Shown: positions 23,401-64,000 of the stretch, piece after piece
How the letters are laid out: each line of letters starts with the position of its first letter
How positions within the stretch are numbered: the first letter of the stretch is position 1
NCBI GenBank assembly: GCA_043798375.1
Contig: JAZDOS010000042.1
Location: 5,037 to 69,036 of the forward strand
DNA from: Candidatus Omnitrophota bacterium
GTDB taxonomy: Bacteria; Omnitrophota; Gorgyraeia; 2-01-FULL-45-10
DNA length: 64,000 nt
Direction: 5' to 3'
Translations under genes and position numbers: made by a program
Notes under the pieces: model-generated
Told to the model about the DNA's origin: nothing
Database searches by the model: none
What the model saw: the letters and a program-made list of their open reading frames with translations, nothing else

Positions 23401-26400
23401 CGCACATACCGGACGGAATATTTGAAGGACTGGGAAGGCATGACTCAAACCCAAATATCCCGGATAACCTGCGTATCCTCATACGGAGAGTCTTCGATAA
23501 CAAGGCAAGTATGGGGGAGGCCTTTGACGCCGACGGCGACAGGCTCGGCGTTATTTCAAGCGAAGGCGACTATCTGCAGGGCGACGATATAGCGTGCCTT
23601 ATAGCTCCCGTACTTATAAAGATGAGAAAGGAATTGACCGGCAAAGAACCGGTCGTTATCGTCAATAATCTCTGCAGTGATCAGCTGAAACAAGTTATCA
23701 GGGAGGCGGGCGGTAGGGCGGTTGAATGCAATGTAGGTTTCACTAATGTAAAAGCGAAGATGACCGAGTTAAGAGATCAGGGTAATGAAGCGATCATGGG
23801 CGTGGAGCTTTCCTCACACATTATGATGGATATGAATTTCGACTCGGATGACGCGTTTTTCGCATCGATTGTGCTTATAGGCATATTGAAACAGAAGGCC
23901 CGCGAGCTTAGCGTGACACCGCAGGAGGTAATGGGGCTCATGCGGAAGGAATTAAATGCCAGATATTTTAAGGTAAATCCCATAGGAGAGGGCCGCGTAT
24001 TGATGTTAACAGACGATACGCGCAAAGAGGCGGCCGCGAAAGCAGTGGAAGAATGCAAGAGGAGGATCGGCGATCCAGAGTATCAGTATATATACGAGAA
24101 GAATCCTGATAGGGAGACGGAAGACCTGGAACGGGAAGGCGGGATCAAGATAGATGTAAAAGAGAGAGAGACCGGCGAGCTTATGGGTTGGTTTGTTATA
24201 AGGCCGTCCGGTACCTCGGCGGAGATAGTCGTCACCGCGGAGTCGGTAGTCGGCGTCCATGCCGAATCGGAGGCAAATGCCATTATGAACGCCCATAAGA
24301 TCAAACAGGAGGTGATAGACCTTCTCCGTCCTTATGAGAGATGGGTTAAGGTTGACGAGATACAGCCCTCGGACTTTGGCGCTGTCTTCAAAGCAAGGCT
24401 CGAAGGCAAGGATGTCTCTGAAGTTAGAGCTGTCGAGAGAGCTGATATCTTCAGAAAATCAGTCGGCATGCTGGCTGTGGGGCAGGCAGATGAAACGCCG
24501 CTTACGCCCGGCGCGGATGAAATAATCGCGTCGATTATGGAAGAGGTTGTGGTGCCCGAAGGCATAAGCGAAGCGAGGAACGCGGCGGCGGGAGAGCGAT
24601 TGATGCAGGAAATAAAGGGTAGCCTTCCCGGCGAGCATACGGATAGGATCGCCTCCATATATAATGAAGTGGTAGCGAGGGTTAAAGCGGCGCGTCTCGG
24701 GACCCGCATAGCCGCTCAGGAAACGACCGCGCAGTTTCTCGCAACTCAGGAAGTGAGGGACGTTACGGTTAATGGGGAAACAGGCGCCCTTATTGTGCCG
24801 TCATCCAGCGATTACAAGGACAGGGGCCAGCACGATTCTACTTACATGAAACTAAGGGGCCTGGCCGCGAATGCCTTGGTTAGCGCGCGGAAATTGTTCG
24901 CGCGGCACCAGTATGAGACGGTTTATTCCATGAACCACGGCGCTCTTCCGATCCCGGAGACGTTGAGGCAATTGGCGTCTTATAACAACGTAAGCCCGGA
25001 AAATTACAGGATTCACGATACATTCTTCCCGCAGGTGAATCCGCTGTTCCCGGGAAGCATACAGTACCAGGTTACGGGCGCCCATTACCAGGCGAATGTC
25101 TTTGACATAAAGTATGTTACCGAGGGTAAAGGCCTGCAGTATCTTGTAAAGGTTGACAGGAAGGCGTTTGAGGAGACCGGCAAGGTCGTCGTGGTCGATA
25201 CGATCGTGCAGGAGATGGCGCCCGGCAAATGGGTATACGCCCTGCCCGGCTATATAGATATAGTGGTGAATAAAGGGGCATTGAGATTTAATGATGTTTC
25301 CTATGAATTGAGCCCGCAGGAACTGGAAAAACTCGAAAACGAGACCGGCTTTAAAATAGATATGGATACGAATTTCTATGAGAAACTGCCGGCGAAAGGG
25401 ATGGCGCATCTATTCTACATGTATAACGGCGAGACGCGTGTTGCGCTCAACCCCGAAGTTATGCCCGAAGGTAACCTCAATATAAGGGTAATGTCAGCTG
25501 GCCTTCCGACGATGGCCGAAAAAGAACTTAAAGTAGGCCTCATGGAGATTTACGCGGCCAATCCAGGCATAGTTCAGTCCATGATGTCGCTTCGATATCT
25601 TGAGACAGTTAATGAGAAGATGCCGTTTGCGCCTGCCATGATACAGGCAATTCATCCGAAAGAAACCATCGTGCCGGAATCGATCGATGTCTTGAATAGC
25701 AGCGCTCAAGAAGCGGCCTTATTCTTTGAGGCATTAGAACAAGAGATCGGGCAAGGGAATCCTATAGAATTCTTACCCAATGTGAGATGCGGCAGGAAGA
25801 ACAATCAGACTTGGGGCGTGCCTGTCAGCGTGTCGATGATACTCGAAGGGCTGGGGGCTCGAACTCGGCAGGAAAAAGAGGCGCTTGTCGATAGGCTTAA
25901 GATTGATATCGATGATGTGGTGAGCGAGCTCTGGATAGGCGCGGACATGGAGCATCCGTCAATGGTAAATGTAAAGACAAAGTATTCAGCGCCTGTATAT
26001 GTGCTATTCGGTAATTATCCCGAAGAAACTTTCGGCAAGGATCATTTAGACGCATTCGGCCGGGATTTCGGCTTGTTGATAAAACACCTCAATTCGGCCA
26101 GATACTTATCCGCCCAGAACCATGTATTTACCGAAGGGGTAATACCTTTAAATAAAGAATCGGTTGCGGTGATGGGATTCGCGAGAGATATAGGGCCCCA
26201 GGAATTGGAAGAAGAATTGATCCGGGGAAAAGAAGAATCGCTTAATAGGGTTGTTCTTATGGAGGGAAAACCCTATCTTGTTCCCAAAGGCATGATGCAT
26301 GCCTATGGGCCTGTCAATGTCCTTGAGATAAAGGAACAGAGCCTTGGAAAACCTGATACGGGTATGACCAATTCCATATATGATAGGTTAAGCGTGCCGG

Positions 26401-27605
26401 CAGGACAGAAGACGCCTCCGGCCGAATGGCCAACGATGAGACAGAATAATCCGGCGGAACTTGCAAAGGCTGTTGGCATCGATTCCAGGAGGACCGGAAA
26501 AGACGTATTGACCATGGCCCGCGAGGCATGGCAGAGGGCATTAAACGTTATGGCCGAGAACAATATGCTGAAGGAGGCAAAACCTCAAGATTATGAATCG
26601 CCGGTTATAAACTTACGTCCCCAAGCGATAGGCGGTAAACTGGAAGGCATGATGTTAGAGCCGGGCTTTGTCGTTGAGAGGTTTGAGATCCATGCAGGCC
26701 AGACGATGTTAGCTGAGGAGCTCACGTTCGGCAGGGCGAGCATAATCATGGTGCAGGAAGGCGCGGTGGATTTGACAACAGAAAAAGATGTGCCGATAAC
26801 GACATTGAAAGCCAAAACAGAAGATAGGTACAGGCTTAATCTATCTGCATATCCGTCTTATAAGATTACAGCCGCTCAGGGCCGGAAGGCTATCGTTGAT
26901 GTGATGTATAAACCTCTTCCGGCCGAGGCGCTCGTCAACACGGGCTTTGAGGCAATTCGCGCCAATCTTCCCGCTGTGCGAAGCCAGAAAGTTCATTTGC
27001 TCACGACTTCAAAAGCGTTCCGAAGGGGTGACGTGCGTGACCGCGAACCCGGCTCGTTCAGATATGAAAAGGAGATTTTAAACCGCGTATCCGACGGCAG
27101 GGTGGAATTATCGGAAGTCATAAGCTGTGACGCGGGCGAATTGAAAGAGGCCCTGCAGGGTTTGATGAAGGGCGAAGAAGGCGTCAATTACGTCGTCCAA
27201 CTTACCGAGGGCGAATTTAATTCGATCAAAGACGATAAGGACATAGCGAGGCTTTTGAAAGATACGAGGCTCATGGTTCTTCCCAATGTCAAGCTTGGCG
27301 AAAACCGCGGCATACCGTTCATCAGAGAGATTGAATCGGCCGGTGTAATACTCGGTAATACAAAACCGGAGGATATCCGGGATAAGACGGCTATAGCCGG
27401 ATGGTTGAAGACCGTAATGTCGAAGTTGACCGGCAACAAAGCGATCGACTGGGAGATGCTCGCGACGCTATTGAAGTCGCCGGACCCGGCGATGTCATTC
27501 GCCGACAGGATAAGTATTCTGCTCAAGAACCTGCAGGTCAGGATCCAGCCGCACAAGGCCGATGAAGGCGTGCGTGAAAGGCGGCAGCTCTTGTGGAGCG
27601 TGTAA
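17412..27605 (+). CDS. Giant secreted multidomain protein (3397 aa) with an N-terminal signal peptide, an embedded ManC-like mannose-1-phosphate guanylyltransferase domain, an embedded ManB/PGM-like phosphohexomutase domain, and large novel regions
   Basis: aaggag RBS 8 nt upstream of the ATG. Signal peptide MIFRKTISVFVIFTFLFSNVAFA. Uninterrupted 10.2 kb ORF. Confidence 0.85.
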   Translation: MIFRKTISVFVIFTFLFSNVAFAVPAKSNIELAGNNETVTTPESIVVPRDFGLVKSKFNGNSGKLIVHIQDAHCNYEAQSNIVKILEGLVKNYSFGLVAVEGADGFIDTSWFKAFPDDEVRKEVADYFMKKGEITGPEFLSITTNLPFKLFGAETRSYYIQNLNAFTSSYPLKDETEKYFNSIKAVLNRLKGFIYSEELKVLDTKIQDYESKKLQFNDYIRFLQAIAEKHKINLRSYDNFFRLVSVLIYEKKIDFNITDKERSALIDELSKAVAKDQLQQLVTQSISFKSGKISSAEYYAYLKNLAAANGIDLSKKYPNLYNYIIYNAVYSKIENEKLFQDLKKIEIAVKEKLFANDDQRALEKLSRHIDILLGLINIKLMNGDFDYYQADKSEFTSEYFEDFIKKKVIQFGLAYDVMAPTEAVAQSIPKLEDFYSIAIKRDKALVDNTLDAMKKEKQNIAVLVTGGFHSEGIAKLLEKQGVSYMVVCPSITKDVPSPYIQILTNQRTPLEDILIGTAHAKEGMVAAPSRAQLITMPDSAFKDYVGRLEAGEKLALAIKAAEEEWVDVTVSGAEGAATPVGRVNIEGLVDRLKEDTGASIAGIVNELRHDLHQRCDRLHLSKISIEHLLALLEEKLTSPEFKAITDKFEAEYNERVANRAALEARRKGAAESGRKSPGRDAVAGIGERALRADEFGRYDSNLGANFEASRVETRDEELPGLRVHVHGDINGSFEEGIAAQNDDALLNGGATIPFPRVHPGTYRGSALSREIDGQIEEIAGQIHVSRYIWDSEKIADVSDSIKITKMDKEVVGNHEKAHLDIFAGKGDIFRLWLLYLEYCAIYKKFVDQEDFVDNIQSWVSLLTKWANKGTNDKGDIVKDAENKMPIKEWAVMNGVPLDARPGDFPNCNTIEIRKKIAALQALRIYKRARWALTNIDEKKMRIALTEAYVLAANYGDDELLSNIINLIPAQPGMRKEICGRAILQIAKWYPLWIRKDLFRTASPGTMELLDQWRTESGADHEITPKDVVAVIMAGGGGERMWPLSVTEDPKQITDIIDEKLLVMAVRRVIEHLGRKNVYIQTIPKLKDKIVKLLKDAGLNIPKENIFAEPESADTSGAIGYAAAKLKRLGRGNDVMFACTADHYIDVTSPDFRSAYMHAAKIAKHNQAIGTLGIDPEPIGVSEEYGCIRKGGETFYEGGHVAAKFIEKPKGKDAKDIFKERLPDNSHVWLYNSGMFIGRPDIFLEAFRQVAPVYGEAFDAIADPEATLETEAKAFKQLGENKKKGGFIHSGEPTGFRKGVSVDYVLAQPVSKMETDRIALFMVAGTFKWKDIGSYAMAYAYYKDDYLGTPDKGDASAKTGVYKDADNNIVVNKSSDITPAPYVNFESCSECFVIANDPDARITLKNLTRTIVIYNPTTKSVMVAPISVEGDSIKKLQGRIGARAALKGYVLGNLSGIEPSKKRAVIRGRYDDKTSSIVMEEADQKNNVVEEYLQGNGIIIGSEGCSISVGVGLATIVDMKDVSLDVRQSTADGINISVEKKGPAAASAGTAVSAGITLAHLETPAERIGNTRMMLERLDINHITPAAYAGVYGVSEDIAKTEIGKIYEEDIDRIIKIAAGISRLKIDRSDPAKIAHLDGEIEKLQKTVKDIVLERKSRGTLVPGWIRLVVEGIKDRAEYKESSRVRSETVRLCNTVFAESKENEILQDAARTEKERILKDKELITLSPAICRRDSVRAEDAELELSDTIANILGKSMVMLMLKQTKLTDPSKLKMVVGRESRITGRRILSAYKRGLLDMGANVLDISKTEIDTLEGRQVSEVVSTPLIYFANQLLNPSSATEITASHLPKAANGIKPTIMKRNVTADEMKVWEELTHDIIDGKIKPSGNKGAETSDASVLGYYHLMLSATLAEIINDESNAAGQALVNKWRLGRNDVLNNGKTLKQALDDIKNEVAAYMGSNPLCGMKMEIDPGNGSMGPIAIPLLIGLGAEIPAAPTHIPDGIFEGLGRHDSNPNIPDNLRILIRRVFDNKASMGEAFDADGDRLGVISSEGDYLQGDDIACLIAPVLIKMRKELTGKEPVVIVNNLCSDQLKQVIREAGGRAVECNVGFTNVKAKMTELRDQGNEAIMGVELSSHIMMDMNFDSDDAFFASIVLIGILKQKARELSVTPQEVMGLMRKELNARYFKVNPIGEGRVLMLTDDTRKEAAAKAVEECKRRIGDPEYQYIYEKNPDRETEDLEREGGIKIDVKERETGELMGWFVIRPSGTSAEIVVTAESVVGVHAESEANAIMNAHKIKQEVIDLLRPYERWVKVDEIQPSDFGAVFKARLEGKDVSEVRAVERADIFRKSVGMLAVGQADETPLTPGADEIIASIMEEVVVPEGISEARNAAAGERLMQEIKGSLPGEHTDRIASIYNEVVARVKAARLGTRIAAQETTAQFLATQEVRDVTVNGETGALIVPSSSDYKDRGQHDSTYMKLRGLAANALVSARKLFARHQYETVYSMNHGALPIPETLRQLASYNNVSPENYRIHDTFFPQVNPLFPGSIQYQVTGAHYQANVFDIKYVTEGKGLQYLVKVDRKAFEETGKVVVVDTIVQEMAPGKWVYALPGYIDIVVNKGALRFNDVSYELSPQELEKLENETGFKIDMDTNFYEKLPAKGMAHLFYMYNGETRVALNPEVMPEGNLNIRVMSAGLPTMAEKELKVGLMEIYAANPGIVQSMMSLRYLETVNEKMPFAPAMIQAIHPKETIVPESIDVLNSSAQEAALFFEALEQEIGQGNPIEFLPNVRCGRKNNQTWGVPVSVSMILEGLGARTRQEKEALVDRLKIDIDDVVSELWIGADMEHPSMVNVKTKYSAPVYVLFGNYPEETFGKDHLDAFGRDFGLLIKHLNSARYLSAQNHVFTEGVIPLNKESVAVMGFARDIGPQELEEELIRGKEESLNRVVLMEGKPYLVPKGMMHAYGPVNVLEIKEQSLGKPDTGMTNSIYDRLSVPAGQKTPPAEWPTMRQNNPAELAKAVGIDSRRTGKDVLTMAREAWQRALNVMAENNMLKEAKPQDYESPVINLRPQAIGGKLEGMMLEPGFVVERFEIHAGQTMLAEELTFGRASIIMVQEGAVDLTTEKDVPITTLKAKTEDRYRLNLSAYPSYKITAAQGRKAIVDVMYKPLPAEALVNTGFEAIRANLPAVRSQKVHLLTTSKAFRRGDVRDREPGSFRYEKEILNRVSDGRVELSEVISCDAGELKEALQGLMKGEEGVNYVVQLTEGEFNSIKDDKDIARLLKDTRLMVLPNVKLGENRGIPFIREIESAGVILGNTKPEDIRDKTAIAGWLKTVMSKLTGNKAIDWEMLATLLKSPDPAMSFADRISILLKNLQVRIQPHKADEGVRERRQLLWSV
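20480..21440 (+). other. Mannose-1-phosphate guanylyltransferase (ManC/GMP-like NTP-transferase) domain inside giant protein 2
   Basis: AVIMAGGGGERMWPLS (GGxGxRLWPLS), EPESADTSGAIGYAAA, TADHYIDV, TLGIDPEPIGVSEEYGCIRKG, KFIEKPKGKDAKDIF...WLYNSGMFI, WKDIGSYAMAY. Confidence 0.7.
22630..24300 (+). other. alpha-D-phosphohexomutase (phosphomannomutase/phosphoglucomutase-like) domain inside giant protein 2
   Basis: Active-site serine loop ITASHLPKAANGIK (TASHNP-like), Mg loop FDADGDRLGV, sugar loop GVELSSH, phosphate loop IRPSGTSAEIVV (RPSGTEP-like). Confidence 0.65.
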
Positions 27606-28144: not shown

Positions 28145-31100
28145 TTGAATAATATTATGCGGAAATACAGAATTATCATCAACACCCTGGCCTGGCTTGT
28201 CATAATAAGCCAGGCCTTTACGCTAAGCCCCGTGTATGCCGACTCGCTCGCCACTCCCAAATTAACCCATCCCGACGCCAATCAGGCCAGAGCCATATCC
28301 AACCTTGCTGAGTTCGAGGTATGCTACGGTGAAAGGCTTTTATATAAGGGTGAAAAGCTTTCGTCCGTTAATTCCGTTTTAAAAAATAGATTTCTGGACA
28401 GGAAAAAAGTTTATTTGAATGAACCGTCTATCCTGGTGCGGGAGAATCTAAAACTCGGTCAAGTTGAATTTATAAGCTACGACAGAGAGAAACAGGCGGG
28501 CGTCTTTAGGTTTAAAGGCAAACCGGACAATTTATATACGGTAGCGCTTATTCCCAGGCAGGGCAAGTACTCGATAACCCTTCATAAGAATTCCTCCGGC
28601 TCGGCATCTCAAAGCCTTGCAAAAACAACTGATAGTCAGGATGAACCCCTCACCGGACACGGGTTCAGCGTGGAGGATGTCAACAAAGTCAAGCTTACGG
28701 CATGGAGCGAATCCGGCGCTTTCAGGAAGGTCATGGATGAGCTCGAAGATATTTTAAAAGCCCGCGCGCCGGATAATCTGAAAGAACTGCTTTTTTATAC
28801 CCTGTCGGCATTTAAAGAAGGCCGTGACGGCCGGCAGCTCGGTTACACGCCCGCCCGCTACAAAGACCCGGCTCATTATTATCTCGGTTTCGGGACATCG
28901 AGATCGATATGCCTCGCCTCCGAATTCCTGGATGAAGAAAGCCCGTTATCGAAATTTGCCGCCGAAGAGCTGTTTCACGAGTTACTGCACGCGGCAATGG
29001 ATATTTCCAAAGACGATTCTTACATCGAGAGCGAGACGGCCAATCATATAACGTCGCTCAGATTGGCCGCGCAATTTTTCTGGGGATTGCCGGAAGAAGA
29101 AGCGCTCTCCCTCTCCCCGAATATGCTCGAGCACCATTCCAGGAACAGCCTCGGCGACGCGATAAGGCTGTGGAAGACGGAACAGCAGGATATACGCGAC
29201 GCCGTCCTCAACAATAAACCGCTTGAATTGAAAAAGATGTTAGTCGACGCGTTAAAGAGAATCGGCAATAATCCGTCGAAACTCTTCGATATTCTCGCCG
29301 TCTGCGATGCCGCGTCGGACGAGATGAAAAGGCATCCGATACAGAGCCGCTATCCTCTGCTTATGGCGGTAACCTTACTGAATAGGAAGCAGAAACTGCA
29401 GCTTGTTAAAGCGGTTAAACAGGGCGGCGATGCTATCGCGGATCTTAAAATAGCGGATTCCGTTCTCCTTATGCTGGAGAAGAAGGTGCGGCCCGATTGG
29501 TTGGGGCACCAGGCGCCCAATCTAAAAGGAAGAACCGTATGGCAGGTTGCCTCGGAGATATGGAATCCCGGCGGAGGGTTAGGGCGCGTAATGCAGTTTG
29601 AGGCCTTTTCTTTCCGCGACATGTTAGGCCAATGCGCGGGCGATGTCCGTCTGAGAACCATAGAACCCCATTACGCGTACGGAAAAGACGGAGTGCCCCT
29701 GGATTACGATAAGATACTCGGCGCTTACGAGGGCAAAGAAGAAAATAGGCTGAAAGAAGTGGATACTTTCGAAGTAACGGTTGGTGACGAGACAGCAATC
29801 GCGGTATGTTCACGCGCCCTCAATCAGCATGGGATCGAAAGTTATATAATTAAGCTCCTCAAGAGGGGCGCAGACGGCAGCCTCTCCCCATATTATACGG
29901 AGGGCATGTATCTTTATCGCGGCGCTGAAGCGCCCGCCGCTGTTCCGATAGAAGATTTTTCCGCGTTCTTCTCTGCCGCCTCGCTTGAGCTTGTCGCGAG
30001 AATTGAGGCAGGGGAAAAAAAGGCTTCCGAGGAAGCCTCATCCTTCTGGAACTATCCGGTCGTATATTTTAATGACGGCCAGCTCGGGCTCGCTCCGTTA
30101 TTCCGCCGGGCGTTCGAACATTTTTCCAATAACCCGATTCTCAAGGAAGCATTAGTCGCTTACAAGACTCACACCTATCCGAACCGGGTCTTTTTCGATG
30201 TGCGCGAGAAGAACGGGGATGAGGGGTATGGCATAAAAGTCCTGAAGCGCTTCGGGATACCGGAAAAATACTGGGAGTATTTTACCCATGTTATCGGTGA
30301 AGAACTGAGCCAGGAGACGAGAGAAGTAGCCGATTTTACATCGGCGGGCCTGCGCTCGGCGGACTGGCAGGCAGGCGTAAGCGCCAAGCAGGCCGACGAC
30401 GTATCGATGTATGACGACTGGGGAAAGTGGAAAGATTTCTTCGAGCTTGTAGCCATAACAAACGGAGATTACCTGCCGATCACCGAATCCCGTTTTGCCG
30501 AGGCCGCCAGGGAAGCGCTCGCGGCCGCCGACATCGAAAGCCTGACCCCCATGCAGGTCTTTGTGGCGAACAGGCGCGCGAAAGAAAACCTGAACGCCTT
30601 TTTGATCAAGCGGCTCGGCGATAAGTATATTTTCGGGATAAGCCCGGACAAACCCGTTCTTTCATATTCCGGAAGGGGTGTTGACGAAAAAGCCGGAAGG
30701 AACAGGGCCCTGTCAAACAGCAACATCATAACTCTGGTGAAGATGGGCGTCCAGGTGGTGATAGGTTTTAATGTCCAGAGCGAGAAACATAACAGGGACG
30801 AGCTGGATAAACTTGCCGAAGAATTGCGCGAGGCAAAAAGCAAAGATCCGGACGGTTACCCCGGCAATTTTATATTTGTCCCCGACAGCGACATAGAAAT
30901 TCAGAGGCTTATCCTTGCCGCTTCAGACGCTCAGGTCCAGGATTCGGATCCGAGGACGGAGGCCGCCGGTTATACGGAATCGAATATAAAAAGGTGCGCC
31001 GGGTTGCAGATAGCGCCGCCCTGGCCCGAGGGAATACTGCAGGCAGGCATCCCCTTTAATTTTAATAAACTCGGAGAAGGGGCTACCATTATTCCGGAAA

Positions 31101-34066
31101 TTACCCTGTCGGAAAGCGATTTGAAAAAATTGCGGCGCGGCGCCTATGATCCCGAGCTGAATAAAAGAGTGAGCCATGCTTACCTTGAATCGTATAAGAA
31201 ACTATTTTCGCTGGGTTATAAGGACGAGGCGGGCCTTGATGAAAATATTCTGGCTAACCTGCGTCAATTGTCGCACCATCAGGCTAACGCGATAAAATTG
31301 AGCCGCGTCTTCGACGCGTGGCTCACTGTGGCTGAAGAGATGCGGCAGTGGTCGGGCGCGATAGAGAAAAGGTTCCCGCGGCCCATAGAAACTCCGCCTG
31401 AAAAACGCGTGGTAATGCTCATATCGGGCGGCGAATCGCCGGGGGTGAACGATTACTTCTCGCTTATGGCAAAGTCGCTCGCGAAGCAGGGCTGCTCCGT
31501 GGAGGCCGTGAGATTCGGGTTGGACGGGCTTGTCCGGGCCAGTGTAGAATTCGACGGAAATCGCGTATGGATCGACTGGGGTAAATCCGAGAATATACTG
31601 CACGCGCCGGGCGCTTTTGAAGGGACCGCGAGGGTAAGGCTCGATGACGCGGGCATGCAGGCCCTGTTGGATAATCTGAAAAGTTATTGTAAAACGCTCG
31701 TCGTCATCGGCGGAAATGACCATCTGGGCGAAGCGGAAAAGATAGCGAAACGGTTAAAATCCGAAGATTCCGATATGGCCGTAGTGGCGCTTCCTAAGAC
31801 GATAGACCGCGATACGAAAATTTATCCGATCGGCGCCGATACCGCCGCCCGGAACGCCAACAAACTGGTTTTGCGCGCGGCGGCCCTGCCGGGATCCGGC
31901 AAGTGCGTTGTCGTCCAGATGATGGGCCGCGACATGGGCTATTTCGCGGTAAGGGCGGGAGATATGAAGCCGAAGGTTCGGGACGGTTATACCGACGCCG
32001 AGATAAATAAGATGGATATTGTCCGGCCCACCGTCGCAACGCTCGTGCCAAATAAGCCGGTACCGCTTTCGGATGTAATTGACGCGGTCAGGGTAAGGAT
32101 GAAGAAATACGGCGCCGCGACGCTCGTCATATCGGAAGGATTCAGGCTTTCCAGGATCACAAGGGACTCGTCCGGAGTTTTTAAATGCGATAGCGATAAA
32201 TTGCTGGAGGGCGCCCTCGAGGATAAATTATTATCGGCAAAACTCGCGAACCTCTCTACCGATGAGCAGGGGAACCCTAATCTCAGCGGACTGGTTGTGG
32301 CGGACTTTCTCGCGGAAGTCCTCGCCCGGGACGAAGAATTAAAATTGATAAGGGAAGAGAACCTGTTGCTTGAAAACCCGAATTACAGCTTCAGGGCTTC
32401 CGCGCCAAACAGCCTTGACCGCGCCGTCGCGGATAAAGCGATCGACTTAGCGAGCCGCGTAATATCAGATCCGGACGAACGCGCGAAGGCAATAAATGCG
32501 GGCGGTGTATGTATCGCCGCAAAGAGGACCGTTTCCAAAGCGGAAGACGTCGAAGTGTCTGTCATACCTTTATCCGAGGCGACAGGAAAGGTAGGCCTTG
32601 ATGACAGCGGCCTCTATACGGATGAGGAATTGTCCGAAAGAAACGTTATCGGATATGCCTCGCCGACAGATAACCTTCCCGATATGCCCGAAACCGAAAG
32701 CCCCGCGCATCCAGCCGGTTATAATAGAGAACATGCCATCATGTGGTTAAATTCCCAGGCGGAATCCGCGAGCGAGATGCAGGCAAAAAGGGGTGATGGC
32801 TGGAGAAGGCCGAATATATGCGTTATCGCCAGGCCGGACGCCGACGATATCATATCGGACCTGAAATACAGAAAGGCCGTATCCAGGGCCGATGAGTACA
32901 TAATGGAGAGGATAGGGAAAGCGACCGTATATATCCCCGCGCTCGAGCCCGTATCTCTATTGGCCATAATAAGGAAGTCGTATGAAGCCTACAATAACTA
33001 TCATATGCTCAATTTGGTGCTGGCGGGGAATATCGAGATCGATAAAAACGACGCTCTGCTGGCAAGATTAATGGAGAACCCTTCCACTAAAGACGCGTGC
33101 GGGGCTATTGTCGGCGGCGCCAGGCATTCCGGAGGAGACAGGTTGATATTCGGAAGAAGGCTCGCGGATCTTATTTCGATGGTTCTTTCTTCGTCCGAAT
33201 CCGTCGCGGCGCTCGCGGCGTTCGGCGAAAAGGCGGGATCGCCCATGACCGATATAAGGACCAATATTCTCGGGGAATCGCTGAACTTATTGCCCGGCGA
33301 GAACGGCCAGCGCATTAAGGCGATCGCCGCTTCTGTTACCGGGGCTATGCCTCAAGCCGAACCGGCGGTTGTAATGAGCGATGACGATATTAACGCTGTG
33401 GTAGAAGCATCCTCCGACGCGGGCGAAGACGCCAGGAAGGCCGCGGAGGCCGAATTCCCCGGCGAAATGCACCTTGTATTCGTCAGGAAGGCGATCCCCG
33501 ATATTCAGCAATCGACTACAATCGCGATGAACGTCTTAAATCTCTGCAGGGAATATTACGCGGATAAACTCGAAGGTTATACCGTTGATATCGTCGACGA
33601 TCACAAGGCCGCCATGGAGCTTCTCGCGAGAAATCCCAACTGGTCCAGGAATGATACAATAATAGGGCTTGTCGATAAGGAAAGCCTTGAAGAGCTGGCA
33701 GGTGAGCTTGAAGCCGGCAATATGACGGATAAGGCAAAGATATTATCGATGCAGAAGGCGGATGACGGCCAGTTTGTTCCCATCAAGCCGTTTTTTGACC
33801 TCATGGCAGCTATCGTGAGGATCAATAGGCCTCTCGACAGGGTGGAAGACAGGGATCTCATCGATTATATCAAAGAGCTGTTAATAAAGATCGGAACCAG
33901 GGATATAGACAGGCTTACCGAAGTCCTTGCCTCTGCCGACTTCCACGATCCTATCCGATTTGCCAGGGACTTTATTATAAGGCTGCTGCCTCCGGCAAGA
34001 AAATTCGACACGACAACGCTGAAAAAACTCTACCAGGCCTCCAAGCTCGTCGTCGAGTCGCTGTAA
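28145..34066 (+). CDS. Giant secreted multidomain protein (1973 aa from the TTG at 28145; the alternative ATG at 28157 gives MRKYRIIINTLAWLVIISQAFTLSPVYADS) with an embedded GT-B glucan phosphorylase/synthase-like segment and a phosphofructokinase-like domain
   Basis: Signal peptide; uninterrupted 5.9 kb ORF; motifs listed under the sub-features. Confidence 0.8.
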   Translation: MNNIMRKYRIIINTLAWLVIISQAFTLSPVYADSLATPKLTHPDANQARAISNLAEFEVCYGERLLYKGEKLSSVNSVLKNRFLDRKKVYLNEPSILVRENLKLGQVEFISYDREKQAGVFRFKGKPDNLYTVALIPRQGKYSITLHKNSSGSASQSLAKTTDSQDEPLTGHGFSVEDVNKVKLTAWSESGAFRKVMDELEDILKARAPDNLKELLFYTLSAFKEGRDGRQLGYTPARYKDPAHYYLGFGTSRSICLASEFLDEESPLSKFAAEELFHELLHAAMDISKDDSYIESETANHITSLRLAAQFFWGLPEEEALSLSPNMLEHHSRNSLGDAIRLWKTEQQDIRDAVLNNKPLELKKMLVDALKRIGNNPSKLFDILAVCDAASDEMKRHPIQSRYPLLMAVTLLNRKQKLQLVKAVKQGGDAIADLKIADSVLLMLEKKVRPDWLGHQAPNLKGRTVWQVASEIWNPGGGLGRVMQFEAFSFRDMLGQCAGDVRLRTIEPHYAYGKDGVPLDYDKILGAYEGKEENRLKEVDTFEVTVGDETAIAVCSRALNQHGIESYIIKLLKRGADGSLSPYYTEGMYLYRGAEAPAAVPIEDFSAFFSAASLELVARIEAGEKKASEEASSFWNYPVVYFNDGQLGLAPLFRRAFEHFSNNPILKEALVAYKTHTYPNRVFFDVREKNGDEGYGIKVLKRFGIPEKYWEYFTHVIGEELSQETREVADFTSAGLRSADWQAGVSAKQADDVSMYDDWGKWKDFFELVAITNGDYLPITESRFAEAAREALAAADIESLTPMQVFVANRRAKENLNAFLIKRLGDKYIFGISPDKPVLSYSGRGVDEKAGRNRALSNSNIITLVKMGVQVVIGFNVQSEKHNRDELDKLAEELREAKSKDPDGYPGNFIFVPDSDIEIQRLILAASDAQVQDSDPRTEAAGYTESNIKRCAGLQIAPPWPEGILQAGIPFNFNKLGEGATIIPEITLSESDLKKLRRGAYDPELNKRVSHAYLESYKKLFSLGYKDEAGLDENILANLRQLSHHQANAIKLSRVFDAWLTVAEEMRQWSGAIEKRFPRPIETPPEKRVVMLISGGESPGVNDYFSLMAKSLAKQGCSVEAVRFGLDGLVRASVEFDGNRVWIDWGKSENILHAPGAFEGTARVRLDDAGMQALLDNLKSYCKTLVVIGGNDHLGEAEKIAKRLKSEDSDMAVVALPKTIDRDTKIYPIGADTAARNANKLVLRAAALPGSGKCVVVQMMGRDMGYFAVRAGDMKPKVRDGYTDAEINKMDIVRPTVATLVPNKPVPLSDVIDAVRVRMKKYGAATLVISEGFRLSRITRDSSGVFKCDSDKLLEGALEDKLLSAKLANLSTDEQGNPNLSGLVVADFLAEVLARDEELKLIREENLLLENPNYSFRASAPNSLDRAVADKAIDLASRVISDPDERAKAINAGGVCIAAKRTVSKAEDVEVSVIPLSEATGKVGLDDSGLYTDEELSERNVIGYASPTDNLPDMPETESPAHPAGYNREHAIMWLNSQAESASEMQAKRGDGWRRPNICVIARPDADDIISDLKYRKAVSRADEYIMERIGKATVYIPALEPVSLLAIIRKSYEAYNNYHMLNLVLAGNIEIDKNDALLARLMENPSTKDACGAIVGGARHSGGDRLIFGRRLADLISMVLSSSESVAALAAFGEKAGSPMTDIRTNILGESLNLLPGENGQRIKAIAASVTGAMPQAEPAVVMSDDDINAVVEASSDAGEDARKAAEAEFPGEMHLVFVRKAIPDIQQSTTIAMNVLNLCREYYADKLEGYTVDIVDDHKAAMELLARNPNWSRNDTIIGLVDKESLEELAGELEAGNMTDKAKILSMQKADDGQFVPIKPFFDLMAAIVRINRPLDRVEDRDLIDYIKELLIKIGTRDIDRLTEVLASADFHDPIRFARDFIIRLLPPARKFDTTTLKKLYQASKLVVESL
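29500..30900 (+). other. GT-B fold alpha-glucan phosphorylase / glycogen-synthase-like segment (GT35/GT5-like) in giant protein 3
   Basis: VASEIWNPGGGLGRVMQF resembles the KTGGLGDV / SGGLGVLAGD glycine loop of glycogen synthase and alpha-glucan phosphorylase. Confidence 0.3.
31390..32130 (+). other. 6-phosphofructokinase-like (PFK family) domain in giant protein 3
   Basis: VVMLISGGESPGVND (GGDAPGMN-like), LVVIGGNDHLGEA (GGDGS-like but altered), ALPKTIDRDT (PKTIDND), QMMGRDMGYFA (MGR motif). Confidence 0.65.
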
Positions 34067-57939: not shown

Positions 57940-58902
57940 ATGTGGAGCTTGAAGATAAGGATGTGGCTTTTAACAGCGGTCCTGTTCGCGATAATCTACG
58001 CCGTAATATCGGCGATAAGTTATTTCCTCGGGATAAGAAATTTTTATTTTTATCTTATACTGTCATTTGCCATAATCTTTGTACAATACATGATCGGGCC
58101 GAAGATCGTCGAGTGGTCGATGCGCGTAAAGTATATAAAAGACGGCGAAAACCCCGGGCTGGAGTCTATGGTGAAGTCGCTTGCCGGGGCCGCAGGCATA
58201 CCCAGTCCGAGGATAGGGATTGCGCAGATCCCGATCCCGAACGCGTTTGCGTTCGGACGTACTATAAGAGATGGAAGAATCTGCGTTACCGAGGGGATCA
58301 TGAATCTGCTGGACAAAAATGAGTTGAAGGCGGTCCTCGGCCATGAGATGAGCCATATTAAAAACAGGGACGTTCTTACGATTACGCTCCTGTCGGTGAT
58401 ACCCATGATCCTATACCGTATCGCGTGGCAGTCCTTATTTTTCGGCCGCTCCAGGGACAGGTCCGGCGGCAACGCCGCGCTGGTCGGCCTTACGGCGTTT
58501 ATATTCTATTTTGTGACGAACCTTCTTGTCCTTTACGCCTCCAGGGTGCGGGAATATTTTGCCGACAAAGGCTCTGTGGACCTGGGAAACGATCCTTCGG
58601 CATTGGCGTCCGCGCTGTATAAGCTTGTCTATGGTTCGGCGAGGATGCCAAAAGAGGCATTGAAGGACGTCGAGGGCATGAAGGCGTTTTTCGCGAACGA
58701 CCCCTCGAAAGCCATTTCGGATTTAAAGGAACTTAAAGCGCTCGATCTGGACAAGTCAGGCACTATATCCGCCGATGAATTAAGCGCCCTGCAATCCCGG
58801 AACATCCGCCTGGGTTTCGGCGATAAACTGATGGAGCTTTTGAGCACCCACCCGAATATGCTGAAACGCATCGAACGCCTGAGTTATTGGGGAAAAGCTT
58901 GA
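57940..58902 (+). CDS. htpX: M48-family zinc metalloprotease, HtpX-like membrane protease
   Basis: TM helices, HEMSHIKNRD (HEXXH), the downstream Glu helix, and a C-terminal extension. Confidence 0.65.
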   Translation: MWSLKIRMWLLTAVLFAIIYAVISAISYFLGIRNFYFYLILSFAIIFVQYMIGPKIVEWSMRVKYIKDGENPGLESMVKSLAGAAGIPSPRIGIAQIPIPNAFAFGRTIRDGRICVTEGIMNLLDKNELKAVLGHEMSHIKNRDVLTITLLSVIPMILYRIAWQSLFFGRSRDRSGGNAALVGLTAFIFYFVTNLLVLYASRVREYFADKGSVDLGNDPSALASALYKLVYGSARMPKEALKDVEGMKAFFANDPSKAISDLKELKALDLDKSGTISADELSALQSRNIRLGFGDKLMELLSTHPNMLKRIERLSYWGKA

Positions 58903-59944: not shown

Positions 59945-60042
59945 AATCAGGATATTGGGATTTGGAAATTGGGATATTTGGATATTGGGTTTTTGTACCA
60001 ATATCCTAATCCACAAATACCCAAATCCTGATATCCCAATCA
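59945..60042. promoter_or_regulatory. Cluster of at least 6 copies, in both orientations, of a ~10-bp TTGGGATATT / AATATCCCAA motif upstream of the agmatinase-pdaD pair; candidate operator array
   Basis: aggatattgggatttgg aaattgggatatttggatattggg ... ccaatatcctaatcc ... cccaaatcctgatatcccaat. Confidence 0.4.
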
Positions 60043-60059
60043 CCCATCACCCTTTGCTT

Positions 60060-60974
60060 ATGGACGAAAAATATATAATAACACCCGTGTCTGGCACGAC
60101 AACCGTCAAGAACTACATGGGGCTTGACGAAGAATATTCGAGTTTCAAGAAATCGAAAGTCGCTATAATGCAGGTTCCGTATGACAGGACAACGACCTAT
60201 ATTCATGGCACCGCCAAAGGCCCCATGGCGATAATCGACGCGTCCAGATACATGGAGCTCTTCGACGATGAGCTGAACCAGGAGACGTACAAAATAGGCA
60301 TACATACGATGCCCCCGCTCGAAGTCGAAAAATTATCGCCGGAAGAAATGGTAGAAAAGGTCCGTGCCTCTTCGGCCGAACTCTTAAAATCGAATAAATT
60401 CCCGGTCCTTCTCGGCGGAGAACATTCCGTCTCGATAGGCGCGGTCAAGGCCTTCAAGGATGCATATCCCAATATCTCCGTCCTTCACCTGGACGCCCAT
60501 TGCGACATGAGGGACGAGTATTTCGGTTCGAAGCTAAACCACGGCTGTGTCGCGCGAAGGATGTCCGAGATCTGCCCTGTTGTGCAGGTCGGGACGCGGA
60601 GCATGTCAAAAGAAGAGAAGGATTTTCTCGGCAGTCAGGCCAACGGCAAGATTAAGACGATAAACGTATATGATATACTGGATAATCCTATGTGGAAGGA
60701 TGCCGCGACTAATAGCTTGAGCGAAAACGTTTATATCTCCATAGACCTTGACGTTTTTGACATATCTCTCGTTCCCGCGGTCGGAACTCCCGAACCCGGC
60801 GGGATCGGATGGTATGAGACGCTCGATCTTTTAATGGATGTGTCGAAGGATAAAAAAATAGTCGGATTTGACGTCGTCGAACTTTGCCCCATACAGGGAT
60901 CTCCTGCGTCCGACTTTCTGGCAGCCAAGCTCATTTACAGGCTTTTGGGGTATGTATTCGGCAGTAAGAGATAG
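60060..60974 (+). CDS. speB: Agmatinase (arginase/ureohydrolase family)
   Basis: GGEHSVSIGAVKAF, LHLDAHCDMRDEY, SIDLDVFD Mn-binding motifs. Start set at the ATG at 60060; the ORF-track extension covers the motif array. Confidence 0.7.
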   Translation: MDEKYIITPVSGTTTVKNYMGLDEEYSSFKKSKVAIMQVPYDRTTTYIHGTAKGPMAIIDASRYMELFDDELNQETYKIGIHTMPPLEVEKLSPEEMVEKVRASSAELLKSNKFPVLLGGEHSVSIGAVKAFKDAYPNISVLHLDAHCDMRDEYFGSKLNHGCVARRMSEICPVVQVGTRSMSKEEKDFLGSQANGKIKTINVYDILDNPMWKDAATNSLSENVYISIDLDVFDISLVPAVGTPEPGGIGWYETLDLLMDVSKDKKIVGFDVVELCPIQGSPASDFLAAKLIYRLLGYVFGSKR

Positions 60975-60982
60975 GATTCAAG

Positions 60983-61552
60983 ATGCTCCTCGTTCCGCGT
61001 AAAAATTTATTGGTCCCGAAGAAGATATTCTTCACGAAAGGTGTCGGCACCCACAAGGCGGAGCTCCGGAGTTTCGAGCTTGCGCTTCGCGACGCGGGGA
61101 TAGAAAAATGCAATCTCGTCAAGGTATCGAGCATACTTCCGCCGGAATGCAAAGTGGTCTCCCGCAATGAGGGCCTGAGAGAGTTTTATGCCGGCATGAT
61201 AACATTCGCGGTAATATCCAGGTGCTCCGCCAACGAGCCGCACCGCCTTATCGCCGCCTCCATCGGCTGCGCGGTCCCGGCCGATCCCCACGCGCACGGA
61301 TACCTGAGCGAACACCACGCGTTCGGCCAGAATGAAAAAATAGCCGGCGACCTCGCCGAAGACCTCGCGGTAGAAATGTTGGCCTCTACGCTCGGGCTCG
61401 AATTCGACGAAGATAAGTCCTGGGACGAGAATAAGGAGATATACCACTTAAGCGATAAGATTGTCCGCACCTCCAACATCACGCAATCCGCGGTAATAGG
61501 CCCCGAAGGCAGTTTCTCCACGGTAGTCGCCGCAGCCGTATTCCTATTCTAG
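60983..61552 (+). CDS. pdaD: Pyruvoyl-dependent arginine decarboxylase
   Basis: FFTKGVGTHKAELRSFELALRDAGIEKCNLVKVSSILPP with the Ser-Ser self-cleavage site; the length of 189 aa fits. Confidence 0.8.
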   Translation: MLLVPRKNLLVPKKIFFTKGVGTHKAELRSFELALRDAGIEKCNLVKVSSILPPECKVVSRNEGLREFYAGMITFAVISRCSANEPHRLIAASIGCAVPADPHAHGYLSEHHAFGQNEKIAGDLAEDLAVEMLASTLGLEFDEDKSWDENKEIYHLSDKIVRTSNITQSAVIGPEGSFSTVVAAAVFLF

Positions 61553-61617
61553 AATTTTTCGGGGGCAGGACCCGAAAAATTTTCCTATATCAAATACGTA
61601 TTTGCTATAATACTACT

Positions 61618-62796
61618 ATGACCCGACGGATAGAGCTGCCATTTAAGGTAAGAAGGCCTATACTCGCCCTGGGAGCGGATTTGAAGGGGGCGTTTGCTGT
61701 TGCCTACGGCAGGGAAGCGATCCTCGTTGACGGATTCGGCGATCTTAGCGACCCCGACAATTTTACAATATACGAAAAGGCCGTTAAGTCCGAGTTGAAA
61801 AAGCTGAAGATAAAGCCTGGAATCGCAGCCTGCGATCTTCACCCCGGCTATTTTTCTACGCATTTTGCGGAGGAAATAAATGAGTCACACCCATTTATTT
61901 TCCCTTTTATCCCTAATTTAATCAGGGTACAACACCACGAAGCGCATATAGCAAGCGCTATCGTAGATCACGCCATCAAAGGTAAGGTTATAGGCGTCGC
62001 GTTAGACGGCACCGGCTACGGCTCTGACGGCTTTATCTGGGGCGGCGAATTCTTTGTCGGGGACCTGAAGAACTTTCACCGCGCCGCGCATTTCGAATAT
62101 GTCGCGATGCCCGGAGGCGATAAAGCTATACGTGAGCCATGGCGCATGGCCGTAAGCTATCTTTATCAAGCGTTCGGCAAGCGCGCGTTCAACAAGCGCG
62201 CGTTCGGCAAAAAATTTCTGAAGTTAAAGCCGAACTTTTTAAAAAATCTTCAAAAGAGGTGCCAGGCACCTTTATTAAAGATGATAGATAAGAATATCAA
62301 TTCGCCGCTCACGTCGAGCGTCGGAAGGTTATTCGATGCCGTCGGGAGCATCGTTTTGTCGAAACCCAATGCCAGATACGAGGCGGAACTTCCCATCGCC
62401 CTGGAAAAGCTCGCGGATCGCTTATGCGGCGATAGATACGATTTCGGTATTTGCAAAGAGGGTGGTTTAATGAAGATCGACAGCCGTAAAATCATAGAAG
62501 GGATTATGGGGGACATGAGAAGGGGGGTCAATAAGGGGTTAATATCGGGCAAGTTTCATAATACTATAAGCGTTATCATAGTCAGGATGGCGCTTACCCT
62601 GAGCAATAAATATAAGTCGCGGAATATTGTATTGAGCGGAGGGGTCTTCCAGAATCGTTTCTTGACGAAGAGAATAACCGAAATGCTTGCGGGGCCGGGA
62701 CCGAAGGCCTGGCTGCATTCGAAAGTTCCGACTAATGATTCAGGGATACCGATCGGTCAGATCGCGATCGCCAATGCGAGGGTAAAATGTGCTTAG
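61618..62796 (+). CDS. hypF: HypF-like carbamoyltransferase, C-terminal Kae1/YgjD-like domain only (392 aa). The acylphosphatase, Zn-finger and YrdC-like domains of canonical HypF are absent
   Basis: LALGADLKGAFAV, ALDGTGYGSDGFIWGGE and LSGGVFQN match the HypF C-terminal domain. The upstream intergenic region is only 65 nt and the neighbour is pdaD. Confidence 0.55.
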   Translation: MTRRIELPFKVRRPILALGADLKGAFAVAYGREAILVDGFGDLSDPDNFTIYEKAVKSELKKLKIKPGIAACDLHPGYFSTHFAEEINESHPFIFPFIPNLIRVQHHEAHIASAIVDHAIKGKVIGVALDGTGYGSDGFIWGGEFFVGDLKNFHRAAHFEYVAMPGGDKAIREPWRMAVSYLYQAFGKRAFNKRAFGKKFLKLKPNFLKNLQKRCQAPLLKMIDKNINSPLTSSVGRLFDAVGSIVLSKPNARYEAELPIALEKLADRLCGDRYDFGICKEGGLMKIDSRKIIEGIMGDMRRGVNKGLISGKFHNTISVIIVRMALTLSNKYKSRNIVLSGGVFQNRFLTKRITEMLAGPGPKAWLHSKVPTNDSGIPIGQIAIANARVKCA

Positions 62797-62993
62797 GGAT
62801 ACCGATGAAGGTCATGAAAATAAGCGGGGATGAAGGGCTCGTCGAATCAGGCGGACTCAGGAAGCCGGCGAATTTTTCACTATTGAAGAACGTCAGGGCC
62901 GGCGATTACATCCTCATGCACGCGGGCTTTGCGATAGAAAAGATTAAGGAGTCCGAAGCGAAAAAAACACTTAAGGTTCTTAGAGAGTTATGA
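62787..62993 (+). CDS. hypC: Hydrogenase maturation factor HypC
   Basis: N-terminal MCLGIPMKV (the MC[LI][AG][IV]P signature); 68 aa. Confidence 0.85.
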   Translation: MCLGIPMKVMKISGDEGLVESGGLRKPANFSLLKNVRAGDYILMHAGFAIEKIKESEAKKTLKVLREL

Positions 62994-64000
62994 AATACGT
63001 CGACGAGTTCAGGGACGGGTATCTTATAGATAAGCTCGCGGCGGAGATCCGCAAAACCGTAGAGTCCGACCGCGCATATAAATTCATGGAAGTGTGCGGG
63101 ACGCACACGATGAACATATTCAGGTTCGGGCTAAAGGATATTCTGCCGGAAAATATACGCCTCATATCCGGCCCGGGGTGCCCCGTATGCGTTACGCCGA
63201 ATGAATTTATAGACAAAGCGATATGGCTCGCGAATCAGGATGGTGTTATAATAGCCACATTTGGAGATATGTTCAAGGTCCCGGGCTCACGCTCGAGCCT
63301 GGAAAAAGAGAAGGCCCGCGGCGCACAGATTAAGATGGTGTATTCGAGCATCGATGCGCTGTCCCTGGCAAAAAATAACCGAGACAAGGAAGTCGTTTTT
63401 CTAGGAATAGGTTTTGAGACGACGGCTCCGACGGTAGCGCAATCAGTTCTGGCGGCGAAAAAGGAAAAAATTAAAAATTATTCCGTATTATGCGGCCACA
63501 AGACGATGCCGGAGGCCATGAAGCTGCTGGCAGAGGACAAACTTGTTAACATTGGCGGGTTTTTATTACCCGGGCATGTAAGCGCTATAATAGGATCGAA
63601 GCCGTATGAATTTCTGGCAAAAAGATTCGGGAAGAGGTGCGTGATAGCGGGTTTTGAACCGGTAGATATTCTCCAGGCATTGCTTATGCTGATTAAGCAG
63701 AAAAAGCCGCAGGTTGATATTCAATACACAAGGGTCATCGATAGATCGGGTAACAGGTTAGCCCGAAAGACGATAGAAAAGGTTTTTGAAAAAACCGGGT
63801 CTATATGGCGCGGCATAGGCGCGATCGAAGATAGCGGACTAATATTTAAAAGTGAATTTTCGGAGTTTGATGCGGAGTCGAAATTCAATCCAAGGATAGA
63901 ATTGCCCAGGAAAGATAATGGCTGTTTCTGCGGCCAAATTCTCAAGGGCCTGAAGACACCGCTTGACTGCCGGCTCTTCGGCAGGGCCTGCAAACCGGAA
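62990..64000 (+). CDS. hypD: Hydrogenase maturation factor HypD (3' partial, runs off the window end). Its start overlaps the hypC stop (ATGA)
   Basis: MKYVDEFRD..., CGTHT, GPGCPVC and FET motifs. Confidence 0.85.
   Translation, partial: MKYVDEFRDGYLIDKLAAEIRKTVESDRAYKFMEVCGTHTMNIFRFGLKDILPENIRLISGPGCPVCVTPNEFIDKAIWLANQDGVIIATFGDMFKVPGSRSSLEKEKARGAQIKMVYSSIDALSLAKNNRDKEVVFLGIGFETTAPTVAQSVLAAKKEKIKNYSVLCGHKTMPEAMKLLAEDKLVNIGGFLLPGHVSAIIGSKPYEFLAKRFGKRCVIAGFEPVDILQALLMLIKQKKPQVDIQYTRVIDRSGNRLARKTIEKVFEKTGSIWRGIGAIEDSGLIFKSEFSEFDAESKFNPRIELPRKDNGCFCGQILKGLKTPLDCRLFGRACKPE

Follow-up and report, generated by a model that had tools for sequence, protein, structure and literature searches.

According to the literature cited here, both cyanide ligands of every [NiFe] hydrogenase derive from a carbamoyl group for which no source other than HypF is known. 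Its YrdC-like domain, which is held to be required for the step, makes carbamoyl-AMP, and its Kae1-like domain moves the carbamoyl to HypE's C-terminal cysteine (PMC9654439, PMC9633730). The closest described system to the one presented here is HypF1 of Cupriavidus necator, an 'unusually truncated' protein (PMC5350229) with 'only one of three domains' that is said to 'likely require carbamoyl adenylate' (PMC9100943), and whose documentation is traced by citing papers to a 1998 study. HypF1 was inactive in an Escherichia coli hypF mutant, where production of HypF1 was not demonstrated (PMC5350229), and it has been speculated that carbamoyl-adenylate is sufficiently available under aerobic conditions only (PMC9100943). 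We analysed a stretch of 64,000 nucleotides (nt) from a Candidatus Omnitrophota bacterium (assembly GCA_043798375.1, contig JAZDOS010000042.1, positions 5,037 to 69,036 of the forward strand), called the window in the following, and found a gene, hypF-C, that encodes the Kae1-like carbamoyltransferase domain, the last of the four in HypF, as a stand-alone protein. The architecture is already known, being that of a HypF1-type truncated HypF; the lineage, the type of hydrogenase and the anaerobic setting are new.

The initial annotation described the gene as the C-terminal, Kae1-like half of hypF only, 392 amino acids (aa) long, and the domain searches agree with this. The start codon at 61618 is the earliest one past an in-frame stop, and Pfam recognises solely HypF_C (residues 12-116, 88 bits) and HypF_C_2 (residues 126-381, 254 bits) in the protein. 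The boundaries of the open reading frame (ORF) were also compared with the HypF model TIGR00143, where the match begins at model position 382 and runs to position 740 of 741 with 258.2 bits, below the cut-off of 466.1. In an alignment with E. coli HypF, the protein begins right past the RSRGYVP motif that closes the YrdC-like domain, and it matches residues 394-747 of the HypF structure 3VTH with an E value of 3.7e-66. On these alignments, the break is a clean boundary between the YrdC-like and the Kae1-like domain. Compared to a canonical HypF as described by TIGR00143, the protein has the Kae1-like domain with its HxxH...D metal site and its nucleotide site, but it falls short on the acylphosphatase domain, the zinc fingers, the YrdC-like domain and the score of the whole protein.

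The missing parts were looked for both in the protein and in the rest of the window. HypF-C has no Pfam match to the acylphosphatase domain (PF00708), the zf-HYPF zinc fingers (PF07503) or the YrdC-like domain (PF01300), and its match to Carbam_trans_N is weak, 16 bits, and under the cut-off. The patterns VxGxVQGVxFR of the acylphosphatase and CxxC-x16-20-CxxC of the zinc fingers returned nothing in the six frames of the window, and no N-terminal half of HypF was found in these frames, either by phmmer with residues 1-378 of E. coli HypF or by a hidden Markov model (HMM) of the N-half. This HMM, built from 16 N-terminal halves, was run, like phmmer, on all ORFs of 30 aa or more, both in the window and in the loci of the related short genes described below. 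That there is no room for the missing domains beside the gene, as had been remarked from the sequence, is consistent with all of these searches. The HypF identity stands as well, as the protein is HypF-like by HMM and the gene is not a pseudogene with a frameshifted upstream part. An identical protein is on record from a Candidatus Omnitrophota metagenome-assembled genome (MAG), with the locus tag V1927_06000.

An alignment of 145 family members has 51 positions with an invariance of 97% or more, which include the motifs HHxxH, DGxGxGxD, SSxGRxFD and GGVFxN as well as D374/G380/Q381. H106, H107, H110, D130, D137 and D374 are invariant in all of them, G131, G133 and G135 are near-invariant (at least 97%), and the conserved residues align with the metal and nucleotide site of the solved HypFs. 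The N-terminus is also fixed, with exactly 17 residues ahead of the first conserved glycine in 79 of the 145 members. An AlphaFold2 model of HypF-C, made with 60 family sequences, has a mean predicted local distance difference test (pLDDT) score of 91.8 and a predicted template modelling (TM) score of 0.91. The model is very similar to the Kae1-like domain of HypF, both in 3VTH and in the HypE-HypF complex 3VTI, with TM scores of 0.87-0.88 and root-mean-square deviations of 1.8-2.1 Å (0.88 and 1.8 Å for 3VTH), as compared to a TM score of about 0.55 for TsaD/Kae1 and 0.39 for TobZ. The only stretches with low pLDDT are two window-specific insertions. One of these, GKRAFNKRAFGKK, is encoded by an in-frame tandem repeat and is inserted in a surface loop, at residues 184-193, where more than 60% of the family is gapped. 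The conservation shows strong purifying selection on the short hypF throughout a deep clade of Omnitrophota, and judged from its sequence and predicted fold HypF-C is a real, functional-looking protein.

The same short form was found many times in the databases. The best 120 database matches are all 345-422 aa long and have only the two Kae1-type domains, and each named one is from Omnitrophota, where the short form is phylum-wide. An exhaustive search of 1.84 billion representatives showed that the extension before the Kae1 domain has a bimodal length distribution among the 145 scorable of the best 150 matches, with 48 representatives at most 25 residues from zero and 58 at 375-424 residues. 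Proteins of ~480-625 aa were considered as a class with a YrdC and a Kae1 domain, and were rejected, as their first residues lie inside a domain, which marks them as fragments cut at the 5' side. When the Kae1 domains are arranged in a neighbour-joining tree, one pure short clade of 45 leaves holds the window protein together with every short form from Omnitrophota, and even a member with no more than 42% identity to the window protein comes from this phylum. The closest full-length relatives are from Sumerlaeota, Elusimicrobiota and Atribacterota, with 40-45% identity. A scan of a genome collection added only one further Omnitrophota genome (L007), while the other matches with a readable 5' end were full-length and from other phyla. 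A metagenome scan added only two close relatives (L038 and L039), and the remaining seemingly short matches were at contig edges or frameshifted. The simplest reading of these sequences would be a single old truncation, followed by a long diversification in an Omnitrophota lineage. Most of the short HypFs are named 'hypothetical protein' by NCBI, because they score under the cut-off of TIGR00143. As for the singleton short leaves of the tree, they may stem from frameshifts in full-length hypF.

Nine loci of the short clade were compared, the window itself, L001, L003, L007, L027-L030 and L039, with stretches of up to 21 kb from the relatives. The order hypF-C, hypC, hypD, hypE is found in all seven loci that retain hypD and hypE (L001, L007, L027-L030 and L039), and in L003 unrelated genes follow after hypF-C and hypC. 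The HypE of the relatives has the canonical PRIC at its end and a TIGR02124 score of 443 bits. Downstream of hypE, four of the loci (L001, L007, L028 and L029) have a hydrogenase cluster (15031-20884 in L028), in which sulfhydrogenase beta/gamma-like subunits, ShyB-like and AsrB/ShyC-like, are combined with a group-4 [NiFe] membrane hydrogenase module of NADHdh-type membrane, small, 30-kDa and 395-aa large subunits. An Mrp-type antiporter subunit comes after the hydrogenase module in L028 and L029. The Ni-binding motifs of the large subunit, RICGICSSSH and DPCYCCTER, are both intact in L007, L028 and L029, where they were checked. The large subunit also has a C-terminal extension of ~35 residues past DPCYCCTER. 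For Omnitrophota, [NiFe] hydrogenases of group 4g with a link to Mrp have been documented, and HypF goes unmentioned in both of the genomics papers on the phylum (PMC8542988, PMC10066038).

The initial annotation had pointed out that there are no hydrogenase structural genes in the window, and our search for homologues of hypE and of the hydrogenase subunits within its 64 kb was empty too. Since the relatives carry hypE right after hypD, and four of them also the hydrogenase, this is almost certainly an effect of the window edge, and hypE and the hydrogenase should be found a few kilobases past the end. By synteny, the genome of the window would have its own hypE and [NiFe] hydrogenase associated with the short hypF. 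The genes are also closely joined. A 10-nt overlap between hypF-C and hypC (62787-62796), absent from the initial annotation, is also present in L001, L003, L027, L029 and L030, and on the C. necator megaplasmid pHG1 it is found both at the truncated hypF (11209-11218) and at a full-length hypF (69334-69343). This common overlap suggests that HypF and HypC are translationally coupled and that the coupling is widely conserved. The 4-nt ATGA overlap of hypC and hypD described earlier is seen in the sequence.

In six of the seven short-clade loci (L001, L007 and L027-L030) hypE is followed by a gene for a UPF0280/ApbE-like protein (239 aa; NF003323 289 bits, cut-off 271) and one for a NIL-ferredoxin (135 aa, NIL plus two [4Fe-4S]), located at 13422-14568 in L027, and none of 34 other hypE loci has this pair. 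It starts 4-8 nt past hypE in five of the loci, and in L001 there is a 67-aa ORF in between. The pair was considered as the missing function and rejected. The correlation is confounded by shared ancestry, because pdaD and the agmatinase gene, discussed below, are equally lineage-restricted and L039 is without the pair. In methanogens the pair is tied to sulfide assimilation.

The data show which domains are present, that the active site is intact and under purifying selection, and which operon partners and hydrogenase go with the gene, and on this ground we propose the following course of events. HypF would long ago have been truncated between its YrdC-like and Kae1-like domains, once, and the resulting stand-alone Kae1-type HypF, functional, would have become fixed in an Omnitrophota lineage. 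Carbamoyl phosphate or carbamate, and ATP, would be converted to carbamoyl-AMP in trans by a separately encoded adenylate-forming enzyme. HypE would dehydrate the carbamoyl group to thiocyanate, and HypC-HypD would assemble Fe(CN)2CO for the group-4 [NiFe] hydrogenase encoded downstream. Whether the Omnitrophota HypF-C is in this way a dedicated carbamoyl-AMP:HypE carbamoyltransferase that is supplied in trans, as the analogy with related enzymes would have it, we regard as an even call, and as the best supported of the readings considered here. What we infer is that carbamoyl-AMP is supplied in trans, and by which enzyme it is made. A precedent is the biosynthesis of N6-threonylcarbamoyladenosine (t6A), where TsaC/Sua5 and TsaD/Kae1 are separate proteins and the adenylate diffuses freely (PMC9654439, PMC9633730). 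By this analogy our favoured donor would be a YrdC-family enzyme such as the housekeeping TsaC/Sua5, because no HypF N-half was found near the short-clade loci or as a protein family. Omnitrophota are described in the literature largely as anaerobic fermenters and acetogens, and the selection of the short form in such a lineage, with H2-evolving group-4 hydrogenases, argues against a function under aerobic conditions only. A more far-reaching proposal is that the Omnitrophota with a short hypF are without HypF N-modules throughout their small genomes, and that carbamoyl-AMP from TsaC/Sua5 or another unrecognised enzyme matures their group-4 hydrogenase; this we put forward tentatively, and consider rather doubtful.

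Several points weigh against a supply in trans by such an enzyme. TsaC is not known to make carbamoyl-AMP, and the inactivity of HypF1 in E. coli, which bears TsaC, argues against a generic supply by TsaC, with the reservation already mentioned on the production of HypF1 in that host. Since hypA and hypB were found in none of the nine short-clade neighbourhoods, a second hyp locus is probable, and two full-length-type HypFs labelled 'Candidatus Omnitrophica' (P0306 and P0411) place the canonical form within the phylum. A HypF N-half or a second full-length hypF may also be located elsewhere in the genome, beyond the searched neighbourhoods. All this would fit a split or duplicated hypF, where the N-modules or a second full-length HypF are encoded at another locus, for example beside hypA-hypB, and where the short protein partners that product or is a paralogue dedicated to one hydrogenase. 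C. necator can serve as a model, as its HypF1 coexists with full-length copies on one megaplasmid, which has three HypF-like places, and as it has a hypA2B2F2 arrangement. We consider a split or duplication possible but somewhat unlikely, as the N-half HMM found no HypF N-half in the ~200 kb that surround the short hypF genes of the nine independent loci, a search confined to these neighbourhoods. Furthermore, database queries with a profile of the closest full-length relatives, and with the N-half of an Omnitrophica-labelled HypF, gave no Omnitrophota N-half-only protein in the best 120 matches of each, which is a weak negative, and the short form makes up at least 120 clusters. The Kae1 half of P0306 is 43% identical to the window protein, and is no closer to it than the proteins from Sumerlaeota or Elusimicrobiota. 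Stand-alone N-half ORFs do occur in the databases, and of those inspected two came from the metagenome scan and five lie on contigs that measure 79 kb to 2.1 Mb. They were rejected as a free-standing family, as all seven (L031-L035, L040 and L094) are followed immediately downstream by a Kae1 piece of their own, and in L033 and L034 the genes neighbouring the N-half ORF are fragmented too. By their layout these ORFs are full-length hypF genes that are frameshifted or split into adjacent parts. N-half-like ORFs and Kae1 pieces of ~330 aa are frameshift products, mostly from long-read or low-coverage assemblies. The sole match of the N-half HMM in the short-clade loci was a Sua5-LMWPc fusion in L027 (3471-4568, 365 aa). 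It scores 181 bits on TIGR00057, as compared to a cut-off of 123, which makes it a bona fide threonylcarbamoyl-AMP synthase, and it is located ~5.4 kb upstream of the short hypF in a classic rpiB-glyA housekeeping context. The fusion of Sua5 with a low-molecular-weight phosphatase loosely mirrors the pairing of acylphosphatase and YrdC in HypF, and nothing found here ties it to HypF-C. It is conceivable that the LMWPc part could be a stand-in for the acylphosphatase domain of HypF in this one relative.

It could also be that the chemistry is different and needs no partner of the YrdC type, with HypF-C using its ASKHA nucleotide site to make an activated carbamoyl donor for itself, or taking the group directly from another donor, for example carbamoyl phosphate. 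The nucleotide- and metal-binding residues are fully conserved, the search for a nearby partner came up empty, and the persistence of the short form in anaerobes is at odds with the suggestion that carbamoyl-adenylate is available only aerobically (PMC9100943). Nevertheless, such a chemistry seems improbable, as the characterised members of the class, HypF, TobZ and the t6A enzymes, all use the YrdC/TsaC fold for the adenylate and the Kae1 fold for the transfer only (PMC9654439, PMC9633730), and as the HypF-C model is a plain Kae1-like domain, with no extra domain or large insertion in the short clade. One might also take the gene for a full-length hypF that is decaying, has become a frameshifted pseudogene or was broken in assembly, since public assemblies contain many HypF ORFs, short or N-half-only, that are frameshift or contig-end fragments. 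HypF-C is also the least conserved gene of the syntenic block, with 61% identity between the window and L028, as compared to 76-96% for ROK, SBP, HtpX, agmatinase, pdaD, HypC and HypD, and 67% for the MetE-like gene. This explanation is effectively refuted by the complete pdaD gene, which ends at 61552, 65 nt upstream of hypF-C as first described, by the lack of a HypF-like remnant in any frame of the window, by the architecture, whose N-terminus is fixed, being shared by nine or more independent assemblies, and by the 51 near-invariant positions, active site included, in a confidently predicted fold. It is very improbable, too, that the protein has a function outside the Hyp system, be it as a t6A enzyme of the TsaD/Kae1 type or as some other carbamoyltransferase, and is found beside hypC and hypD by chance. 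It has the TsaD/Kae1 fold in common with these enzymes, at the TM score of about 0.55 given above, and a weak match to the TsaD model TIGR03723, in residues 305-385 only, but the 23 bits of this match are to be compared with a cut-off of 296.1 and with the 254 and 88 bits of the HypF-specific Pfam domains. The best structural matches are the HypF Kae1 domains, and both the 10-nt overlap with hypC and the constant order of hypF, hypC, hypD and hypE are conserved.

The features around hypF-C are collected in Table 1.

Table 1. Location of hypF-C, its neighbouring genes and its sequence elements, numbered from the first nucleotide of the window.
Feature	Position	Strand	Basis
Agmatinase (speB-like)	60105..60974	+	TIGR01230 229 bits (cut-off 174)
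pdaD, pyruvoyl-dependent arginine decarboxylase, 189 aa	60983..61552	+	PF01862 E 3.9e-58; NF009064 207.8 bits (cut-off 207)
13-bp perfect hairpin over the pdaD stop codon, into a U tract	61551..61583	+	Terminator-like (inferred)
TATAAT hexamer 6 nt before the hypF-C ATG, possible -10 box (speculative)	61606..61611	+	Sequence reading
hypF-C, Kae1-like carbamoyltransferase domain of HypF as a separate protein, 392 aa	61618..62796	+	Pfam, TIGR00143, 3VTH alignment, AlphaFold2
15-nt in-frame tandem repeat, 2.7 copies, encodes GKRAFNKRAFGKK	62170..62210	+	TRF score 68
hypC, 68 aa, starts MCLGIP	62787..62993	+	PF01455 E 3.9e-24; TIGR00074 76.5 bits
hypD, incomplete at the window end, N-terminal 336 codons	62990..64000	+	TIGR00075 409 bits, positions 5-345/372

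The product of hypC has Cys2, and the HypD of the window carries the CGTH and GPGCPVC motifs. The longest ORF for the agmatinase is 59955-60974. A tblastn search with the 289-aa orthologue from L028 spans 60105-60971 with 81% identity, and the true start is probably near 60105, rather than at 59955. The pdaD product is 96% identical to its L028 orthologue. The hairpin at the end of pdaD has an RNA folding energy of -18.1 kcal/mol, with z = -3.24 as compared to 200 shuffles, and it was not listed by the consensus terminator scan. The TATAAT hexamer was not reported by the consensus promoter scan and is without a qualifying -35 partner. In the relatives, HtpX, the MetE-like gene, agmatinase and pdaD form an upstream block of conserved synteny, and the stretch from pdaD to hypF is interrupted by unrelated genes, for a HEAT protein of 1398 aa, a transposase and PFK. 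It is probable that pdaD is a separate transcription unit from hypF-C. The initial annotation presented pdaD and the agmatinase gene as a polyamine pair preceding hypF-C. The identities of both genes are supported by their HMM scores; as a functional partner the pair does not hold, and its position reflects the synteny of the lineage. A functional tie between the polyamine genes and hypF was rejected on account of the hairpin past pdaD and the variable insertions in the relatives.

Two more observations were made upstream of these genes. The HtpX-type M48 protease (57940-58902) has a C-terminal EF-hand-like calcium-binding motif (PF13202, residues 262-284), which is faint in the relatives. The first half of the window is filled by three giant consecutive ORFs on the + strand, 99-17108, 17412-27605 and 28145-34066, of 5669, 3397 and 1973 aa. 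Giant, poorly annotated ORFs have been reported as a hallmark of Omnitrophota (PMC10066038).

The short hypF of Omnitrophota gives a second, phylogenetically broad system for asking where the adenylate for HypF1-type proteins comes from, and here the short gene is part of the sole hyp operon seen beside a group-4 hydrogenase. If the supply were to come from TsaC/Sua5, there would be a natural cross-talk between the chemistry of tRNA modification and hydrogenase maturation. It would also answer how proteins of the C. necator HypF1 type work, and the route would be shown in anaerobes. Furthermore, surveys that are based on gene names can miss maturation genes such as these, with the result that the hydrogenase maturation capacity of Omnitrophota MAGs is under-called.

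When compared with known systems, HypF-C is homologous end to end to the Kae1-like domain of canonical HypFs (E. coli b2712, Caldanaerobacter 3VTH/3VTI and Thermococcus kodakarensis 4G9I), with 36-38% identity, and it has the HHxxH...D metal site, the fold and the predicted partner HypE in common with them. It differs by being without the acylphosphatase domain, both zinc fingers and the YrdC-like domain, together ~380-400 residues, and thereby without both the site where carbamoyl-AMP is formed and the internal channel for its delivery (PMC9654439). The t6A system also has its YrdC-fold synthase (TsaC/Sua5) and its Kae1-fold transferase (TsaD/Kae1/Qri7) as separate proteins, with the adenylate passed in trans (PMC9654439), but its substrate is threonylcarbamoyl-AMP and its acceptor A37 of the tRNA, and the window protein is no TsaD. 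In the O-carbamoyltransferases TobZ, NodU and CmcH a Kae1-like and a YrdC-like domain also cooperate via carbamoyl-AMP (PMC9654439, PMC9633730). Contrary to HypF, these enzymes have the domains fused in the reverse order and use small-molecule acceptors.

The most similar protein in architecture is HypF1 of C. necator H16 (pHG1 10034-11218, WP_011153939.1), which is 394 aa long as compared to 392 aa for the window protein and has an identical set of Pfam domains. The gene order hypF1-hypC-hypD-hypE and the 10-nt overlap of hypF and hypC are also the same as in Omnitrophota. In its native host HypF1 can reportedly substitute for HypF2, which is not used as evidence here. The host of HypF1 is an aerobic H2 oxidiser, where the protein occurs with hypA1/B1/hypX, a group-1 hydrogenase and coexisting full-length HypFs, whereas the Omnitrophota short form is found with a group-4 (4g-like, Mrp-associated) hydrogenase, is fixed in a deep clade and is without a known full-length partner. 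HypF1 is only 29% identical to the window protein, which is less than the 35-38% of the full-length HypFs, and in the neighbour-joining tree it is a separate singleton outside the Omnitrophota short clade. Because of this low identity and separate position, the two short forms are the result of independent truncations, and their architecture is convergent.

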